A DNA stretch of 64,000 bases. Source: a virus. Lineage: Duplodnaviria; Caudoviricetes. The notes beneath the pieces were generated by a model. It did not search any database. It was not told the origin of the DNA and was given only the letters and a program-made list of their open reading frames with translations. Location: IMG/VR virus record IMGVR_UViG_3300035208_002115, one strand, 5' to 3'. Position numbers and translations under genes: made by a program. Shown piece after piece: positions 48,470 through 56,146 of this stretch (the stretch's first letter is position 1; each line of letters begins with the position of its first letter).

Positions 48470-49702
48470 ATGGCAAAGAAAAATTCAACAAATGCATTCA
48501 GTGACATTTCAGGTCTACTTGAATCTGCCTCAGACAAGACAGATGTTATCTTAGAAAATTCCAACATCAAAAGCACGTTTATTAGCACAGACATCCATAT
48601 TTTGGATGCTTTATTATCTACTCATGTAATTGATGGTGGTATCGCAGATGATAGAATTACAGTGTTTGCTGGTGACCCACAAACAGGTAAATCTTATATC
48701 TGTTATAATATAGCCAGAAATGCTCAGAAACAGGGATATTATGTTGTTTACATTGATACTGAACACGCCTGTAACTTATCTACATTTGAAACTTTTGGAA
48801 TTGATGTTAAAAAAGAAAATTTCCAATTGATAAAAATCAAGGACATTGAAACTATTAAGACTGTTATGGCTAAGTTTCTTAATAGTATGAGAATTAAAAA
48901 AGAAGAAGGATTTGATGTTCGTAAAACAATTATATTTTTTGATTCTATTGGTGGTGTTGCATCAAGAAAAGAAATTGATGATGCAATAGAAGGTAAAAAC
49001 AAACAAGATATGACAAGGGCTAAATCACTTAAATCGTTATTTAGAATTATATCAGTTGAAATGGGATATTTGCGTATGCCTCTTGTAGCAACTAATCATA
49101 TTTATTTGTCTCAGGATTTATTTCCACAGGCTATTATGAATGGTGGTAAAGGTCTTGAATACTCAGCATCTGTTATTGTTTATCTTTCATCAGCTAAATT
49201 AAAAAGTGATAGGGAAGATGATATGTCAATAGGACAGACTGGTATTATAGTTAGTGCAAAAGCTAAGAAAAATCGTTTAGCAAAACTGAAAAAAATAAAG
49301 TTTGATATCGATGGTGATGGTGGCACTAATAAGTTTGGTGGTTTAGATTTCTTTTTAACAGCAGAAAATTATGAAAAATTCGGAATTGCAAGAGGTAAAT
49401 TGGTAAAGGGTACTGATGGTAATATGGTTTTTGAAGCTGGTGGACAACGTTCGAAATGGTATGTTCGTCATTTAGACCAAACCTTTTATGATAAGGAGCT
49501 TTATACTTCCAAAATATTTACAAAAGAGATTTTGTCTAATTTAGAACCTGTTGTAAAAGATTATTTCAGATATGCATCTTATGAAGAAGCTCAACAATAT
49601 CAAGAACAATCATTAGATGCTCATCATAAAGCAGAAGAAACTGCTATTGATGAAACATTTGATATTGATGTTGACGGAGCAGATACTAAACTTTTTGATT
49701 AA
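48470..49702 (+). CDS. uvsX: UvsX/RecA-like recombinase
   Basis: AGDPQTGKS Walker A, YIDTE, FFDSIG, DMTRAK..KSLFR, TNHIY, GGKGLEYSAS. Confidence 0.93.
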   Translation: MAKKNSTNAFSDISGLLESASDKTDVILENSNIKSTFISTDIHILDALLSTHVIDGGIADDRITVFAGDPQTGKSYICYNIARNAQKQGYYVVYIDTEHACNLSTFETFGIDVKKENFQLIKIKDIETIKTVMAKFLNSMRIKKEEGFDVRKTIIFFDSIGGVASRKEIDDAIEGKNKQDMTRAKSLKSLFRIISVEMGYLRMPLVATNHIYLSQDLFPQAIMNGGKGLEYSASVIVYLSSAKLKSDREDDMSIGQTGIIVSAKAKKNRLAKLKKIKFDIDGDGGTNKFGGLDFFLTAENYEKFGIARGKLVKGTDGNMVFEAGGQRSKWYVRHLDQTFYDKELYTSKIFTKEILSNLEPVVKDYFRYASYEEAQQYQEQSLDAHHKAEETAIDETFDIDVDGADTKLFD

Positions 49703-49716
49703 TTAGTAATATAATA

Positions 49717-49752
49717 AAAAAAAGACATGTGAGAATTCTCACATGTTTTTTT
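49717..49752 (+). terminator. Intrinsic terminator/hairpin after uvsX
   Basis: acatgtgag-aatt-ctcacatgt + T tract. Confidence 0.8.
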
Positions 49753-49774
49753 ATCTAAAAATATTTTAAGTGAA

Positions 49775-50512
49775 ATGGCAGGGGAAAAGGTTGCACCACA
49801 AACGGAATTATCGTTCTTTACTTACATATTGGCGAACCCATTACAATTTCAATTTGTTGAACCATCATTTTTTAAACAGGATGAAATACAATTTGTTTAT
49901 AAATTAATACATGATTATTATTTATCAGCAAAAGTAAAAAGAGTTCCATCCAATGACCAGATAGTTGGTATGGTTAAAATAAATGACCCCGAAAATAAAA
50001 TATCGGATAATGCATTACGGGTCATACTAAAGAACCAAAATGATAACATTGAAAAAGATTGGATTGAAAATAGATTTAGAGCTTGGAAAATATCAAGTGC
50101 TGTTAAAGAAAGAGTTTTCAAAAGTGTTGAGTTAATAAGAAGTTTGGATGATATTAATATAACCAATGTTCTTGGTATAACGTCCGAACTTGAAAACCTA
50201 TATAAAAATCTTTTAATTATTGATAATACTGATGAAGATTTGGGTTCAGATTTTTATGACCCAGAATCTCATAAACAAAATGTAAATGTAAACAAAGTTA
50301 AAACTGGGTGGTCATCACTTGATAATATTCTTACAGGTGGTTGGGACATTGGAACTCTTAACGTTATTATGGGGGAGACAAACATAGGTAAATGCACTCA
50401 TTATCAATCAGTTATGAGAGTTAAAAATAAAAAAACGGGTGAAATAAAAGAAATAAAAATTGGTGATTTTTTTAATTTAATTAAAAATAAAAATATTAAT
50501 GATGGTTTGTAA
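49775..50512 (+). CDS. Replicative helicase (gp41/DnaB) N-terminal part fused to split-intein N fragment
   Basis: KTGWSSLD..L.GG...GTLNVIMGETNIGK then C (50393) THYQSVMRVKNKKTGEIKEIKIGDFF. Confidence 0.92.
   Translation: MAGEKVAPQTELSFFTYILANPLQFQFVEPSFFKQDEIQFVYKLIHDYYLSAKVKRVPSNDQIVGMVKINDPENKISDNALRVILKNQNDNIEKDWIENRFRAWKISSAVKERVFKSVELIRSLDDINITNVLGITSELENLYKNLLIIDNTDEDLGSDFYDPESHKQNVNVNKVKTGWSSLDNILTGGWDIGTLNVIMGETNIGKCTHYQSVMRVKNKKTGEIKEIKIGDFFNLIKNKNINDGL
50393..50509 (+). mobile_element. Split intein N-fragment (39 aa)
   Basis: Cys1 directly after Walker A GK; block A-like segment and I.I.D/E.F motif. Confidence 0.88.
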
Positions 50513-51620
50513 AATATGCAATAAAAAATTCCAAACCAGAAAGGGGTTGATAATACATTTAAGTAAATTTCATTCAAATGAAAATCTTAAAGAGTATTAT
50601 GATAAATACTTAAAAAATGATAATGAGGGTAAATGTTATATATGTGGTGATGATGCCAAATTTTTAAGTATTAGTAAAGGTTACCACACATTATGTTATT
50701 CGAATGATTGTTTAAGTAAATCAAGAGCAACTGGTACTTATCAATTTCTGATGTCTAAATATAAAATATCTAAAGAAGAAGCAATAAAATTAATGAATGA
50801 AAGAGCTTTAGAAAGAGGTAAAGAAATAAAAAGTGGATTAGATATTAAATTAAATGAAAATGAAAATTTTCATAAAGAAAAATCACACCAAACTAAGGAA
50901 TATTGGATTAAAAGAGGTTATGGTGAAAAAGAATCTATTCAAAAATCGTCTGAAATTATGAATATGATTCATAATAAATCAACAATTAAAAGAAAAAATA
51001 ACCCAGATAAATATAAAGATATATTAACAACCCAAATTGGTTATTGGCTTAAAAAAGGTTATCCTGAAAAAGAAGCTAAAGAAAAATTAATTGAAAGACA
51101 AAAAACGTTTTCTTTGGATAAATGTATAGAAAAATATGGTGATAAAATTGGTGAAGATGTCTTTAATAAAAGACAGTGGTCTTGGTCTAAATTAATGGAA
51201 GATAAATATAAAAATGGTGATTATCTTAAATTTAGAAAAGAACTATATTCTAAAGATGAACTCAAACTTTTCGAAAATATAATTGAAAAATTAAATATAC
51301 ATGATAATGTTTATTATGGTAAAAAACAATATTATAGAACATTTAAAAGTATAGGAAAAACTTTTTCATATGATTTTGTTTACAATAAAAAAGTGATAGA
51401 ATTTAATGGTGATTATTGGCATTGCAATCCTTTATTATATAAAGCTGATTATTTTCATCAGTATAAACAGATGTATGCAAAAGATGTGTGGAAATTTGAT
51501 AATATAAAAACAACTTGTATAACAGATTGTGGTTATGAAATTTTAATAATTTGGGAAAATGAATATAAACAAAATAAGGAAAAAACTATACAAAAATGTA
51601 TAGATTTTATTAATAAATAA
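50499..51620 (+). CDS. Free-standing Vsr/DUF559-like homing endonuclease with zinc fingers
   Basis: CKIC...HLSKFH, CYIC; YW.K.GY.EKE repeats; YDF...VIEFNGDYWH...GYEILIIWE. Confidence 0.85.
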   Translation: MMVCKICNKKFQTRKGLIIHLSKFHSNENLKEYYDKYLKNDNEGKCYICGDDAKFLSISKGYHTLCYSNDCLSKSRATGTYQFLMSKYKISKEEAIKLMNERALERGKEIKSGLDIKLNENENFHKEKSHQTKEYWIKRGYGEKESIQKSSEIMNMIHNKSTIKRKNNPDKYKDILTTQIGYWLKKGYPEKEAKEKLIERQKTFSLDKCIEKYGDKIGEDVFNKRQWSWSKLMEDKYKNGDYLKFRKELYSKDELKLFENIIEKLNIHDNVYYGKKQYYRTFKSIGKTFSYDFVYNKKVIEFNGDYWHCNPLLYKADYFHQYKQMYAKDVWKFDNIKTTCITDCGYEILIIWENEYKQNKEKTIQKCIDFINK

Positions 51621-51630
51621 AAATTATTAT

Positions 51631-51993
51631 ATGTTAAGTGATAATACTTATAAAAAATTTATAGAGGTTTTTGATGTTGATGATTGGCAAATAGAAACTG
51701 ATAACGGTTGGTCTGATATCGACCAAATTGGAAAAACTATTGAATATGATGAATGGGAATTAAAAACAATCGATGGATTTGAATTGATATGTGCAGATAA
51801 ACATATATTATTTGATGAAAATTTTAATGAAATATATGTAGAAAATTTAATTAAGGGAAGTAAGATAATTAATACAAATGGTATAAGTGAAATATTATAT
51901 GTTAATAAAACAAAAAATATTTCTAATATGTTTGATATTTCTATAAAAGATGATAAACATAGGTATTATACAAGTGGTATATTATCTCATAAT
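51631..51993 (+). mobile_element. Split intein C-fragment (121 aa)
   Basis: Blocks B, F and G; terminal His-Asn followed by Ser+1 at 51994. Confidence 0.9.
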
Positions 51994-52716
51994 TCTATGT
52001 GGCTTCACAATATTGCTTCAAATACTATTAAAGCTGGTAAGAATGCTTTAGTTTTAACATTGGAGATGGCTGAATATAAATGTACCAAAAGAATGGGTTC
52101 TATGCTTCTGGGTATTCCACCAAGTCTCTATGAAGAAAAAAGTAATGATACACAATATATGTTAAATAAATTGAAGTCATTTAAAAATACTGCAATCACA
52201 AGTAATTTATTCAATAGTAAAGCAGGTGAGCTTTTTGTTAAAAAGTTTAACACAAGTGATTGTACTGTTACTGACATTGATAATTACATAATGAAATTAC
52301 AAGATAATAAACAATTTAAAGTTGATATGGTACTTGTTGATTATCTCAATATAATGAGTCTTGAAAAAGGATTAGATATTAAAGGTAATTTATATCAAAA
52401 AGGAAAACATATAGCAGAAGGTTTGAGGTATCTGGCTGGAAAACACAACACCACATTTATCACTGCAACACAAACAGATAGAGCAGTGTGGGGTGCATCA
52501 GATATTAAAATGGATGCAGTACCAGAATCAAAAGCTATTGTTGAAACTGCTGATACGGTCTGGGCTATTATTAGAACGACTGAAATGAAAAGACAAAATC
52601 TTTATCGTTTGAAAAATTTAAAGCTTAGAGATGGTGAATGTAAGGAACAACAGGTGAAGTTTACTTTTAAGCCTGAAACCTTAACAATGGAAAACGACCT
52701 TTTGGTCGTAGAATAA
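51631..52716 (+). CDS. Split-intein C fragment fused to helicase C-terminal part
   Basis: ICADKH (block B), MFDISI..KHRYYTSGILSHN|SMWL; TLEMAE, LVDYL, TATQTDR, ESKAI.ETAD, KLRDG. Confidence 0.92.
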   Translation: MLSDNTYKKFIEVFDVDDWQIETDNGWSDIDQIGKTIEYDEWELKTIDGFELICADKHILFDENFNEIYVENLIKGSKIINTNGISEILYVNKTKNISNMFDISIKDDKHRYYTSGILSHNSMWLHNIASNTIKAGKNALVLTLEMAEYKCTKRMGSMLLGIPPSLYEEKSNDTQYMLNKLKSFKNTAITSNLFNSKAGELFVKKFNTSDCTVTDIDNYIMKLQDNKQFKVDMVLVDYLNIMSLEKGLDIKGNLYQKGKHIAEGLRYLAGKHNTTFITATQTDRAVWGASDIKMDAVPESKAIVETADTVWAIIRTTEMKRQNLYRLKNLKLRDGECKEQQVKFTFKPETLTMENDLLVVE

Positions 52717-52735
52717 AAAAAAAATTTTTTATTTT

Positions 52736-53485
52736 ATGAATGAAAAAAATAAAAATATAAAAACCGAAGATAACAATTCAGTGTTTTTAGAAAATGAAGA
52801 TGGTGTCGATGAATACAATGAAATAAATTTAGGAAAAGATGTATTCGTTGATGAATCTTTTAATGAGGATGACGATGATGATGAACCATATATTGAAGCG
52901 GTAGAAGATGATGAAGATGGTGATGAAGATGAATCTGAAAAATCTGAAAATAAAAATAATTCTTCTGACAAACATGGTGATTTAAATGCTATATATCGTT
53001 TTAATAATAATAAACATAAGCGTGAAGGTCGTCACTCTCTGAAAAGAGATACCATATTTAAAGGTAAAGAGAATAAAGTAGAAATAGGTGAAGAAGATTC
53101 ATCTGACCATCCGATTAATAAAAATTATAAAATTGAATCTGGTAGTTTATTCGAACAAGAATCCAGAAATAATGAAGATTATGTGAATCAAAAAAATCTT
53201 TCTAATGATGTTTTTGAAATTTTAGAAAAATTTACTGATTTAGATTTTAAAAACAACCGAAGAAAACCAAATAAACAATCTTTTAATGATTATTATAGAT
53301 TGTTATTAGAACATCTTAGTATTAAGTATACCCATTCTGAATTGTTTGTAGAACTTGCTTATTATTTTTCGGATAATATTTTTAATATATTCAAACTTTT
53401 AGATAAAAAATATGCTACAATCGTAATCAGAGAACTAAAATCCAAAGGTTATTTAAAGAATTTAGATAACATAAATTTCGTTTAA
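52736..53485 (+). CDS. Hypothetical protein with highly acidic N-terminus
   Basis: D/E tracts followed by a helical C-terminal domain. Confidence 0.75.
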   Translation: MNEKNKNIKTEDNNSVFLENEDGVDEYNEINLGKDVFVDESFNEDDDDDEPYIEAVEDDEDGDEDESEKSENKNNSSDKHGDLNAIYRFNNNKHKREGRHSLKRDTIFKGKENKVEIGEEDSSDHPINKNYKIESGSLFEQESRNNEDYVNQKNLSNDVFEILEKFTDLDFKNNRRKPNKQSFNDYYRLLLEHLSIKYTHSELFVELAYYFSDNIFNIFKLLDKKYATIVIRELKSKGYLKNLDNINFV

Positions 53486-53515: not shown

Positions 53516-56146
53516 ATGTCAAAATTGAAAATATACTCACGAGAAGAAGTATTAACGGAATCATTAAAATATTTCAAAGGTGATGAATTAGCAGCCGAAG
53601 TGTGGATAAATAAATATAGTTTAAAAGATTCATATGGGAATATATTTGAAAAATCGCCAGATGATATGCATCGAAGGATTTCCAGTGAACTTGCAAGAAT
53701 TGAAAAAAAATATAAAAATCCAATATCAGAAGAAGAAATTTATGATACTATAAAAGACTTCAAATTCATTATACCGCAAGGTGGCCCGATGAGTGGGATT
53801 GGAAATAATTTACAGATAGTAAGTTTAAGTAATTGTTTTGTAATTGGTGAAAATCCACATGATTCCTATGGTTCTATCTGCATGGTAGACCAACAACAAA
53901 TACAATTAATGAAAAGACGTGGTGGTGTTGGTCACGATTTATCTCATATCCGACCAAAAGGAACACCAGTTAAAAATAGTGCATTGACTTCAACAGGTGT
54001 TGTCCCATTCATGGAACGTTATTCGAATACAACTAAAGAAGTCGCCCAAGATGGAAGACGTGGTGCATTAATGATTAGTATATCAATAAACCATCCCGAT
54101 GCCGAGAGTTTTATTGATGCTAAAATGACAGCAGGTAGAGTAACTAACGCTAACGTATCAGTTAAAATTGATAATGGATTTATGAAATCTGTGATAAATA
54201 ATGAAGATTATTATCAAACATTTCCTATAAATTATGACATCTCTACATATACTAATCGTTCAGAGATGAAATACGATATTTTAGAAGAACATGGGTTTTA
54301 TAACGAAGATGGTAGTATGAAAACTGTGTATATTAAAAAAGTAGATGCTAAAAAAATATGGAATAAAATTATATTTAATGCATGGAAATCAGCCGAACCC
54401 GGCATTCTGTTCTGGGATAATATAATCAGTGAATCTATACCAGATTGTTATCAAGACCTTGGTTATAAGACTGTTAGTACGAATCCATGTGGTGAAATTC
54501 CATTGAATTCCTACGATTCGTGCAGGTTACTTGCATTGAATTTATATTCTTATGTTGAAAACCCATTCACAAAGGAAGCATATTTTAACTGGGATTTATT
54601 CAGAAAACATGTTCAGATGGGTCAGAGATATATGGATGATATCGTAGACCTTGAAATAGAAAAAATAGACCAAATATTAGAAAAAATCGAAAATGATTCT
54701 GAATCTGATAGAATAAAACTGGTTGAAAAGGATTTATGGGAAAATATTCGAAAAATGGCTATTAATGGTAGACGAACTGGTCATGGTATAACAGCAGAAG
54801 GTGATATGTTAGCAGCTTTAGGTTATATTTATGGTACAAAAGATGCTACCAATTTCTCGGAAACTATTCACAAAGAGTTCATGTTAGAATCATATCGTTC
54901 ATCCGTGATTATGGCAAAAGAACGTGGTGCATTTCCTATATATGATTGGAATAGAGAAAAAGAAAATCCCTTTATAAACAGAATTTATAATTTAGATTCC
55001 GAGCTGTATAAAGAAATGGTTGAATATGGTCGTAGAAACATTGCCCTACTCACAATTGCTCCAACTGGGACTGTATCATTAATGACCCAAACAACATCTG
55101 GTATTGAACCATGTTTCCTACCAGTTTATATGAGAAGACGAAAAATTAATTCACAAGAAAAAAATGTGCGTGTTGATTTCACAGACGATGAGGGTGTAGC
55201 TTGGCAAGAATATCCAGTATTTCATCATAAATTTGAAACGTGGCTTGGCGTAAATGGTTTTGATATTGAAGCAGTAAAAGATATGAAGAAAGAACAATTA
55301 GATGAGATTGTTAAACAATCACCATATTATAAAGCCACTGCAAATGATGTTGACTGGGTTGAAAAAGTTGAAATGCAGGGTCGTATACAAAAATATGTTG
55401 ACCATTCCATATCGGTTACAGTTAATCTTCCAAGTAATGCAACTGAAGAAATTGTAGCCAAGGTATATGAAAGAGGCTGGTCAAGTGGATGTAAAGGTAT
55501 AACAGTTTATCGTGATGGTTCTCGTTCTGGTGTTTTAATTTCTAAAAAGGAACAAAAAGAAAAAGAAAAACTTGATGCTTTTAAAGACCACAATGCACCT
55601 AAAAGACCAAAACGGTTAAAAGCCGATATTATTCGTTTTCAAAATGATTCTGAAAAATGGATTGCTGTTGTTGGTTTATTAGATGGTAGACCATATGAAC
55701 TATTCACTGGCCGTCTTGTAAACGGAATGTCTTCCCTATCACCAACTATTAAAGAATGTGAGGTTATTAAGAGTAAAATAGATGGTGAAGATGGTAAGAA
55801 GATTTCTCGTTATGATATGGAATATACTGATGTAGATGGTGAAAAGAAAACATTTTTTGAATTAAATCATTCTTTTAACCCCGAATTTTGGAATTATGCA
55901 AAATTGGTGAGTGGTTTATTACGTCATGCAATGCCTTTGATATATGTTTATGAATTAATAAATTCTTTAAACCTAAATGATGCCCATTTAAATACTTGGA
56001 AAGCTGGGGTCACAAGAGTTATTAAGAAATATATTAAAGACGGTGAAAAAGTAAAAGGTGTTTGTCAAGAATGTGGTAGTGAACATGTTGAATTTAAAGA
56101 GGGGTGTATGACTTGCATGAGTTGTGGTTCGAGTCGTTGTTCCTAA
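53516..56146 (+). CDS. nrdJ: Class II (adenosylcobalamin-dependent) ribonucleotide reductase
   Basis: SLSNCF, RRGGVG, GRRGALM, TNPCGE, IAPTGT, SGIEP, KGITVYRDGSR, C-terminal CxxC..CxxC; no small subunit adjacent. Confidence 0.93.
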   Translation: MSKLKIYSREEVLTESLKYFKGDELAAEVWINKYSLKDSYGNIFEKSPDDMHRRISSELARIEKKYKNPISEEEIYDTIKDFKFIIPQGGPMSGIGNNLQIVSLSNCFVIGENPHDSYGSICMVDQQQIQLMKRRGGVGHDLSHIRPKGTPVKNSALTSTGVVPFMERYSNTTKEVAQDGRRGALMISISINHPDAESFIDAKMTAGRVTNANVSVKIDNGFMKSVINNEDYYQTFPINYDISTYTNRSEMKYDILEEHGFYNEDGSMKTVYIKKVDAKKIWNKIIFNAWKSAEPGILFWDNIISESIPDCYQDLGYKTVSTNPCGEIPLNSYDSCRLLALNLYSYVENPFTKEAYFNWDLFRKHVQMGQRYMDDIVDLEIEKIDQILEKIENDSESDRIKLVEKDLWENIRKMAINGRRTGHGITAEGDMLAALGYIYGTKDATNFSETIHKEFMLESYRSSVIMAKERGAFPIYDWNREKENPFINRIYNLDSELYKEMVEYGRRNIALLTIAPTGTVSLMTQTTSGIEPCFLPVYMRRRKINSQEKNVRVDFTDDEGVAWQEYPVFHHKFETWLGVNGFDIEAVKDMKKEQLDEIVKQSPYYKATANDVDWVEKVEMQGRIQKYVDHSISVTVNLPSNATEEIVAKVYERGWSSGCKGITVYRDGSRSGVLISKKEQKEKEKLDAFKDHNAPKRPKRLKADIIRFQNDSEKWIAVVGLLDGRPYELFTGRLVNGMSSLSPTIKECEVIKSKIDGEDGKKISRYDMEYTDVDGEKKTFFELNHSFNPEFWNYAKLVSGLLRHAMPLIYVYELINSLNLNDAHLNTWKAGVTRVIKKYIKDGEKVKGVCQECGSEHVEFKEGCMTCMSCGSSRCS

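Follow-up and report, generated by a model that had tools for sequence, protein, structure and literature searches.

Fractured genes, among them gp41-1 to gp41-9 and a Terminase locus, were described by Dassa, London, Stoddard, Schueler-Furman and Pietrokovski (2009; PMC2677866). In these loci, an N-extein with the N-terminal part of an intein (IntN), a free-standing Vsr-like endonuclease and the intein's C-terminal part (IntC) with its C-extein are encoded one after the other on the same strand, in a gp41 helicase host and with uvsX upstream. The same order is found at positions 49775..52716 of a 64,000-nucleotide (nt) stretch of the IMG/VR virus record IMGVR_UViG_3300035208_002115 (Duplodnaviria; Caudoviricetes), the whole of which is called the window below. 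Here, the gene of a gp41/DnaB-type replicative helicase is interrupted within the Walker A motif, or P-loop, of its ATPase domain. A preliminary description had recognized the two helicase genes and their intein halves; its two-gene account was incomplete, as it left out a nuclease gene of 373 amino acids (aa) between the halves. The presence of this Vsr-like nuclease gene between the intein halves makes the locus a fractured gene of the 2009 kind (PMC2677866). As a whole, it is best explained, with a probability that we put at about 87%, as a fractured gene in which an atypical split intein in the helicase Walker A motif is spliced in trans and spread by nuclease-driven homing.

Other features are also shared with the loci of Dassa and colleagues. 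An endonuclease-less allele exists in both cases (gp41-7 there, the sister phage L006 here), and the IntC of their Terminase locus, with 122 residues and lacking only motif N1, resembles that of the window. However, the gp41 inteins of 2009 have an IntN of 88-105 aa and an IntC of 33-54 aa, whereas the halves in the window measure 39 and 121 aa. The earlier inteins lie at other sites (position 356 of P-SSM2 gp41 for gp41-1 to gp41-7), while that of the window lies at the Walker A GK/S site (a slash marks a junction throughout). Further, the start of the endonuclease gene overlaps the IntN stop here, as opposed to a 27-51-base spacer there, and a 676-kb landfill or groundwater phage takes the place of marine cyanophages.

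Inteins with a short IntN and a long IntC have been characterized in TerL: AceL-TerL (25 and 104 aa, Cys1/Cys+1), GOS-TerL (37 and 115 aa, Ser1/Cys+1) and the consensus Cat-TerL (30 and 104 aa) (PMC13014065; PMC11766414). The window intein shares this shape, perhaps with the same break after the first helix (position S2), and is homologous to the TerL inteins, which supply CatC, the locus L009 and 112 of the best 150 family matches. It differs from them in its helicase host, its Cys1/Ser+1 junctions and its stronger charge contrast, and its 39-aa IntN slightly exceeds any characterized (15-37 aa, PMC13014065). VidaL (6vgv/6vgw; Burton et al., 2020, as cited in PMC13014065), the best solved sequence match, has the same CAxxH block B, HRYY...SH(N) blocks F and G and Ser+1; unlike the window intein, which appears to be broken after helix 1, it is split after strand 2 (S1) and has a 16-aa IntN. 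Similarly, the classic P-loop inteins (DnaB-b, MCM-a, RFC-a and TerL1-a; PMC4760082; PMC5050341) occupy the site between the invariant Lys and Ser/Thr of Walker A, including in a replicative helicase. Those inteins are contiguous and reside in cellular DnaB or mycobacteriophage TerL, whereas that of the window is split and accompanied by a free-standing nuclease gene.

Layout of the locus and its sister alleles

The locus consists of three tandem + strand open reading frames (ORFs) in frames 2, 0 and 1. ORF1 (49775..50512, 245 aa) runs to GETNIGK and then through a Cys and 38 further residues to a TAA. Its first 206 aa (49775..50392) are the N-extein of the helicase, which ends in GETNIGK, the first half of Walker A, and is collinear with the intact genes of two sister phages, L007 and L008. 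IntN, with its stop, occupies 50393..50512 (coding 50393..50509); its 39 aa from Cys1 hold block A and probably also the first strands and helix, and it is kept in the third sister, L006. ORF2 (50499..51620, 373 aa), the free-standing homing endonuclease gene, has a start that overlaps the IntN stop by 14 nt, and ORF3 (51631..52716, 361 aa) starts 10 nt past the ORF2 stop. The first 121 residues of ORF3 are IntC (51631..51993), which includes ICADKH (block B CADKH) and MFDISI...HRYY (block F) and ends in ILSHN (block G). The C-extein (51994..52716) follows with SMWL and comprises Ser+1, 239 further aa of the RecA-like ATPase domain of the helicase and the stop. The junctions GETNIGK/C and SHN/SMWL and the lengths of the two intein pieces had been given in the preliminary description and were confirmed at the same positions. 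The internal stops of ORF1 and ORF2 are both TAA; with three frames and two TAA stops, neither read-through nor the TAG or TGA recoding of large phages can fuse the ORFs. A promoter and terminator scan of the locus found no + strand terminator between the three genes, which allows their co-transcription; the scan was otherwise uninformative (45 promoter-like sites against 39.5 expected).

ORF3 matches Pfam DnaB_C (8e-14). In PHROG 19 (DnaB-like replicative helicase), residues 26-206 of ORF1 align with profile positions 183-366 and residues 124-353 of ORF3 with positions 369-578, so that the two pieces abut. The best solved structure for ORF3 is T4 gp41 (8dtp, E 3e-19), with SHN/S falling on VGK/S of the T4 Walker A, and the insertion point of the intein lies between the Lys and Ser of the motif (GETNIGK/SMWL). 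The DnaB_C RecA-like ATPase domain with Walker A and the additional N-terminal domain identify the host as a gp41/DnaB replicative helicase. Its surroundings are those of a T4-like replication module, with uvsX upstream and a ribonucleotide reductase gene (window 53516..56146, 876 aa) two genes downstream.

When viral contigs were scanned with ORF3, three sister phages were obtained, all from one metagenome. Two of them carry an uninterrupted helicase, of 446 aa from its ATG in L007 (640-kb contig; 96% identical to the window C-extein) and of 445 aa in L008 (114-kb contig). Both read GETNIGKSMWL, exactly the sequence that trans-splicing had been predicted to rebuild; the empty sites are GGAAAA/AGCATGTGG and GGTAAA/TCTATGTGG, respectively. 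A blastn comparison joins window position 50392 directly to 51994, and the insert 50393..51993 (1601 nt) is exactly absent from L007. The exact empty sites mean that this 1601-nt stretch is precisely an insertion, and that its removal at the protein level gives a natural protein of the predicted length. The expected spliced product of about 446 aa agrees both with the sum of the exteins (206 + 240 aa) and with the natural helicase of L007. The adjoining of the helicase pieces on one profile, the fall of SHN/S on VGK/S and the exact absence of the insert from L007 show that the layout is not due to chance.

The third sister, L006 (422-kb contig), has the same split, with an IntN of 41 aa, an IntC of 121 aa and a stop at the same place, in a locus of 76-85% nucleotide identity to that of the window. 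Only 147 nt separate its intein halves. This spacer (L006:4854-5000) is made up of three ORF2 remnants corresponding to window 50499-50518, 50634-50704 and 51548-51620, which amount to the initial 20 nt, 71 nt from the interior and the final 73 nt of the nuclease gene, the stretches of 115 and 843 nt between them having been deleted. In L006, the stop codon of IntN falls within the former start region of that gene. Because the spacer is built of pieces of ORF2, the nuclease gene must formerly have been present and has since decayed.

Comparison of the window with L006 by the Nei-Gojobori method gave ratios of nonsynonymous to synonymous substitution rates (dN/dS) of 0.14 for the N-extein (dS 1.12), 0.35 for IntN (dS 0.77, 39 codons), 0.12 for IntC (dS 0.68) and 0.05 for the C-extein (dS 0.98). 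Purifying selection acts on both intein halves even with a dead nuclease, as expected if the helicase can be made through them only. These values also bear on the possibility that the helicase gene is dying, broken by a selfish insert while replication is performed by a host or other helicase. The sister genomes do differ at the locus (empty, full or nuclease decayed). The source virus record (675,678 bp, 98% complete) has a single DnaB-family helicase, one intein copy and one ORF2 copy in a search that covered the DnaB family only, so that helicases of other families may exist. However, dN/dS is only 0.05-0.14 in the exteins and 0.12-0.35 in the intein halves at dS of 0.7-1.1, ORF1 and ORF3 have both stayed intact in two diverged genomes, and decay is seen in the nuclease gene only. 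A dying gene is, in our estimation, very improbable.

The source being a metagenome assembly, the interruption might also be an artefact: a mis-assembly, or an RNA intron whose removal yields a contiguous intein, with or without a nuclease domain inside it. The preliminary description had itself named RNA splicing and wrong assembly as outcomes that would overturn it. Two Logan contigs from two studies, one of 9655 nt (landfill, 2018; covering 49700..52800) and one of 5285 nt (groundwater, 2022; covering 50240..52800), cross the junctions with 0 differences, and an Rfam scan with a cut-off of E 1 returned, for 49700..52800, two chance matches and no intron. The same split and stop place recur in the diverged genome L006, the three ORFs lie in three frames, and in two related loci (L011 and L012) the spacer between the halves, of 3 and 67 nt, is too short for any intron. 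We find an artefact of either kind scarcely credible.

Each of the two metagenome runs also contains a contig of about 2.26 kb whose matches are confined to the 3' end of the nuclease gene (51555-51608) and the last IntC codons (51966-52002), with 851 other letters between them; this contig probably represents a cassette of related type in a different gene or phage of these communities. Other short joints in Logan contigs (sides <40 letters) probably likewise represent related cassettes from other organisms. At L008:6475-10323, the ribonucleotide reductase measures 1282 aa, compared with 876 aa in the window, and contains, after ...FKRR/C, a contiguous intein in which a LAGLIDADG-like block (...LAGIIDADGYV...) can be read. 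Within this phage group, a second intein, of conventional type, is thus polymorphic two genes downstream of the helicase.

The intein halves and the position of the break

Among solved structures, IntC matches VidaL (6vgv, E 3.5e-4), gp41-1 (6qaz, 0.009), CatC, the consensus intein of the atypical TerL type (6dsl, 0.066), and also PolB16, in alignments that extend across CAxxH, the block F Asp, HRYY and SH(N)S. The TerL IntC of L009 is 51% identical to that of the window. In an alignment of nine IntC sequences (A2), the invariant positions include the His of block B, the Asp of block F and the Ser-His of SHN (H58, D102, S119 and H120), the stretch H[IK][VL]FDENFNEIFV is near-invariant and the start KF[IV]... 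is conserved. On the other side, Cys1 directly follows the N-extein (GETNIGK/C, 50393). A Cys1 is also present in L006, in the family loci L010-L013 and L015, which are described below, and in P0096, a helicase of 615 aa.

P0096 contains a contiguous 162-aa mini-intein at the same GK/S site, which could in principle be a gene-calling fusion. Residue n of the window IntN aligns with its residue 200+n (IntN on 201-239) and residue n of IntC with 243+n, and, about 4 residues aside, the whole mini-intein is accounted for by the two halves, with nothing missing or added. An AlphaFold2 (AF2) model of P0096 was obtained with alignment A5, since in alignments A3 and A4 the rows of N-exteins and short IntN pieces were placed wrongly. 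The mean predicted local distance difference test score (pLDDT) of this model is 58, with 70-89 over the part equivalent to IntC and 37-57 over that equivalent to IntN. In Foldseek, it matched T4 gp41 (E 2.7e-11) and, as the best intein match by fold, VidaL (E 7.7e-7, template modelling score 0.52). Two short strands and a helix at 223-232 (IntN residues 23-32) are modelled, at low pLDDT, ahead of the break at 239/244. The model thus suggests, with moderate confidence, that the break follows the first helix and corresponds to the S2 position of AceL-TerL and GOS-TerL, not to the S1 position of VidaL and PolB16 (both as defined in PMC13014065). When IntN was compared with the PDB, only the N-terminal end of TFIIB mini-inteins showed a resemblance, which was not significant.

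In atypical splits, an IntN of a few tens of residues carries block A only, and an IntC of more than 100 aa carries blocks B, F and G; this is the distribution found here (39 and 121 aa). Judged by these sequence features, the locus appears to be a class 1 split intein that is atypically split and has Cys1/Ser+1 junctions. This supports the original proposal of a short IntN and a long IntC at the Walker A motif of a gp41/DnaB-type helicase.

Electrostatic capture of one half by the other had also been proposed. The charge count given for IntN (8 K/R and 4 D/E) was exact, while the first 50 aa of IntC contain 14 D/E and 4 K/R, not 15 and 4. The net charges of +4 and -10 in the window and of +7 and -8 in L006 make for a strong contrast in this lineage. 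However, the contrast is weak in relatives from gp46, Clp and TerL (IntN 0 to +3, IntC -4 to +3), and Cat-TerL, the one relative studied, is reported to bind through clustered hydrophobic residues and N-extein threading (reviewed in PMC11766414). Capture by charge may apply to this lineage, as a proposal that we infer from composition.

The conserved residues also bear on whether the halves splice at all. If they never did, the intein fragments would join the helicase pieces non-covalently, or the enzyme would function as two chains. Phage Aeh1 offers a precedent in its split NrdA, the fragments of which come together through interaction domains that a mobile element left behind (PMC3045599), and purifying selection on the halves would also be expected for mere dimerization domains. 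However, the break lies inside Walker A, and without splicing about 160 residues would remain in the P-loop. Residues required for the chemistry only, namely Cys1, the block B His, the penultimate His, the terminal Asn and Ser/Thr+1, are kept across hosts, and VidaL, the nearest solved relative, is an active splicer (PMC13014065). Halves that never splice are improbable, and trans-splicing is the reading that we prefer.

The nuclease gene and the proposed homing cycle

The EDxHD class of homing endonucleases was first predicted in fractured-gene loci (PMC2677866) and was later characterized in I-Bth0305I, whose catalytic residues are E170, D196, H213 and D222 (PMC3239194). ORF2 matches PHROG 22677, a family of unknown function. 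Its comparison with the PDB, both by single sequence and by the profile of an alignment with homologues from four other loci (A1), yielded nothing usable, and that with Pfam yielded only sub-threshold matches to MTES_1575 and DUF559. Since sequence searches were unproductive, a comparison of folds was needed. An AF2 model of ORF2 has pLDDT values of 84-96 over its C-terminal domain (residues 250-373), and Foldseek ranked I-Bth0305I first. VIA-align gave a Z score of 10.7 to Vsr (1cw0; root-mean-square deviation 3.0, 126 residues aligned) and of 10.3 to I-Bth0305I (3r3p; 2.2, 93/97 residues, 24% identity), with the next unrelated structures at 8.9 and below. Invariant residues in alignment A1 are E301, G304, D305, H308, N310, P311, D334 and K337. 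Of these, E301, D305, H308 and D334, which do not vary among 5 homologues, are candidate counterparts, as a set, of the catalytic Glu, Asp, His and Asp of I-Bth0305I. ORF2 is, on its modelled fold, a member of the Vsr-like EDxHD homing endonucleases.

The N-terminal part of ORF2 contains a C2H2-like zinc finger (weak Pfam matches) and tandem YWxxxGYxExE repeats. The latter coincide with a 55-nt direct repeat (D1; 50901-50955 and 51042-51096, 78% identical), which encodes two copies of YW[IL]K[KR]GY.EKE, and the homologues contain more copies of a similar YWxxxG[YFW]xxxE motif. No name for the YWxxxGY repeat was found in the homing-endonuclease and intein literature examined. The finger and the repeats likely form a modular DNA-binding region. 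I-Bth0305I, the prototype of the class, similarly combines a C-terminal nuclease fold and a conserved E..D..H...D set with a separate N-terminal DNA-binding region (PMC3239194). It differs from ORF2 in being intron-encoded in recA and in carrying NUMOD2 motifs, whereas ORF2 lies in an intein split and carries a C2H2-like finger and YWxxxGY repeats.

These features suggest the following course of events. A mini-intein would have invaded the helicase gene between the Lys and Ser of Walker A, and the intein coding sequence is itself interrupted, probably just past the first alpha-helix, by a free-standing Vsr-like/EDxHD nuclease gene. Three proteins would now be made: the N-extein with the 39-aa IntN, the endonuclease, and the 121-aa IntC with the C-extein. 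IntN would dock into the near-complete IntC and finish the HINT fold. Class 1 splicing, through a Cys1 thioester, attack by Ser+1 and cyclization of the terminal Asn, would yield a helicase of 446 aa whose GETNIGKS P-loop is intact. Intein-less sister alleles would presumably be cut by the endonuclease and, on co-infection, receive a copy of the whole cassette. After decay of the nuclease, as seen in L006, both intein halves would have to stay, or no helicase would be made.

Several points weigh against trans-splicing with nuclease-driven homing, or against parts of the case for it. The Thr of the block B motif TxxH is replaced by Ala (CADKH). VidaL also has Ala for Thr in its block B (CAFNH), with a reported splicing half-life of about 1 min (PMC13014065). 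The low pLDDT over the IntN part of the P0096 model means that the placement of the break depends mainly on secondary structure and sequence alignment. Either Logan read set may be the source of the assembly, which makes these contigs not fully independent of it, and the dN/dS of IntN is based on 39 codons only. Finally, the phage might use a host helicase, so that its dependence on splicing is something we infer.

The intein family and its host genes

Among 1.84 billion representatives of clusters formed at 50% identity, an IntC profile built from the nine sequences of alignment A2 matched 1903 clusters at E<=1e-3, 867 at 1e-10 and 290 at 1e-30. By their exteins, the best 150 of the 1903 include 112 TerL, 11 gp41-type helicases, 5 gp46/Rad50-like and 3 Clp-like proteins. 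In ten of these 11 helicases, the sequence opens with an IntC of 117-151 aa, after which comes Ser or Thr. In GenBank, the IntC family is found in 321 phage records, nearly always in TerL, from Vibrio phages, Campylobacter phages CP220 and CPt10, and Salmonella, Klebsiella and Dickeya phages. The preliminary description had regarded short-IntN splits as rare and a gp41 host as unusual, a view that these numbers contradict. At least 10 further gp41-type helicase clusters with this split are present in public metagenomes.

Across the family, IntN measures 34-52 aa (34-43 in gp41, gp46 and Clp; 52 in the TerL locus L015) and IntC 117-153 aa. All IntN/IntC pairs examined in full (gp41, gp46, Clp-like and one TerL) have a short IntN and lie at a Walker A site. 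In L010, the pair occupies the Walker A motif of a gp46/Rad50-like gene and is accompanied by a nuclease gene, as is the pair in the Walker A motif of a Clp-like AAA+ gene in L013. The gp46/Rad50-like Walker A pairs of L011 and L012 have no nuclease, with 3 and 67 nt between their halves. Of the TerL loci, L009 and L014 contain the same nuclease family as the window, so that ORF2 homologues lie between the intein halves in L009, L010, L013 and L014, and L015 has another ORF in this place. The IntC of L015 (L015:3084-3530) ends in SHQ/T, with Gln for Asn, and the N-fragment of L014 (L014:3132-3731) reads ...RQSGK/TLSF..., with no Cys after the Lys. The helicase C-fragments P0146, P0125, P0056 and P0022 open with this IntC. 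Several end in a second intein piece at or just past TQxxR, and P0022 has a second, contiguous intein at the TQxxR site. Read from their sequences, the helicases with an intein piece at TQxxR are fractured twice, atypically at the P-loop and conventionally further on.

The closest GenBank relatives of the window helicase belong to uncultured huge phages (LR756501-4 and LR745206, 634-735 kb), at 43-55% identity and without an intein in the helicase. In the 735-kb phage LR756501.1, an IntC of the same family lies at 611056-611412, about 19 kb from the helicase (630723-631433), which matches the extein only; its position away from the helicase indicates that the intein family occupies a different gene there. 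An apparent IntC in gp41 of the cyanophages S-SSM5 and S-SSM7, seen on tblastn of ORF3 against GenBank phages, was rejected as an artefact of gapped extension; the S-SSM5 gene is uninterrupted (459 aa).

In a FastTree phylogeny of 159 IntC domains (123 columns), 74 of the 156 forks are unresolved, and the window and L006 pair at 100. Helicase-borne inteins are scattered on this tree, with 10 label changes, at least 2 of them forced by well-supported branches. Poorly resolved as it is, the tree is no more than suggestive of host switches. A tentative further reading, which we hold to be possible but less than even in likelihood, is that the split intein and its EDxHD nuclease gene form a mobile unit that hops among the Walker A GK[ST] loops of TerL, gp41, gp46/Rad50-like and Clp-like ATPases. 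The sister phages would then be a live snapshot of its homing cycle in which intein loss is blocked: a split intein would be removable only through exact recombination with an empty allele, so that the last step of the cycle, loss, could not readily proceed.

Every element of the locus is known: fractured genes with Vsr-like nucleases (PMC2677866), splits of the TerL class (PMC13014065; PMC11766414) and P-loop insertion (PMC5050341; PMC4760082). The combination of an atypical split with the P-loop of a gp41-type helicase was not found in the literature examined, a scope that excludes the original descriptions of VidaL and GOS-TerL. For protein engineering, natural split inteins with a short IntN are sought for semisynthetic labelling, and the window pair offers Cys1/Ser+1 junctions and halves of strongly complementary charge. 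With 39 aa, however, its IntN exceeds the useful 15-25 aa, and hundreds of relatives are available from the census. For phage biology, a single family of atypically split inteins occupies the P-loops of at least 4 unrelated ATPases, and three allelic states (empty, full and nuclease-decayed) coexist in sister phages of 0.1-0.7 Mb from one sample. The locus may thus provide an example of a selfish nuclease that has locked a helicase gene into dependence on trans-splicing.

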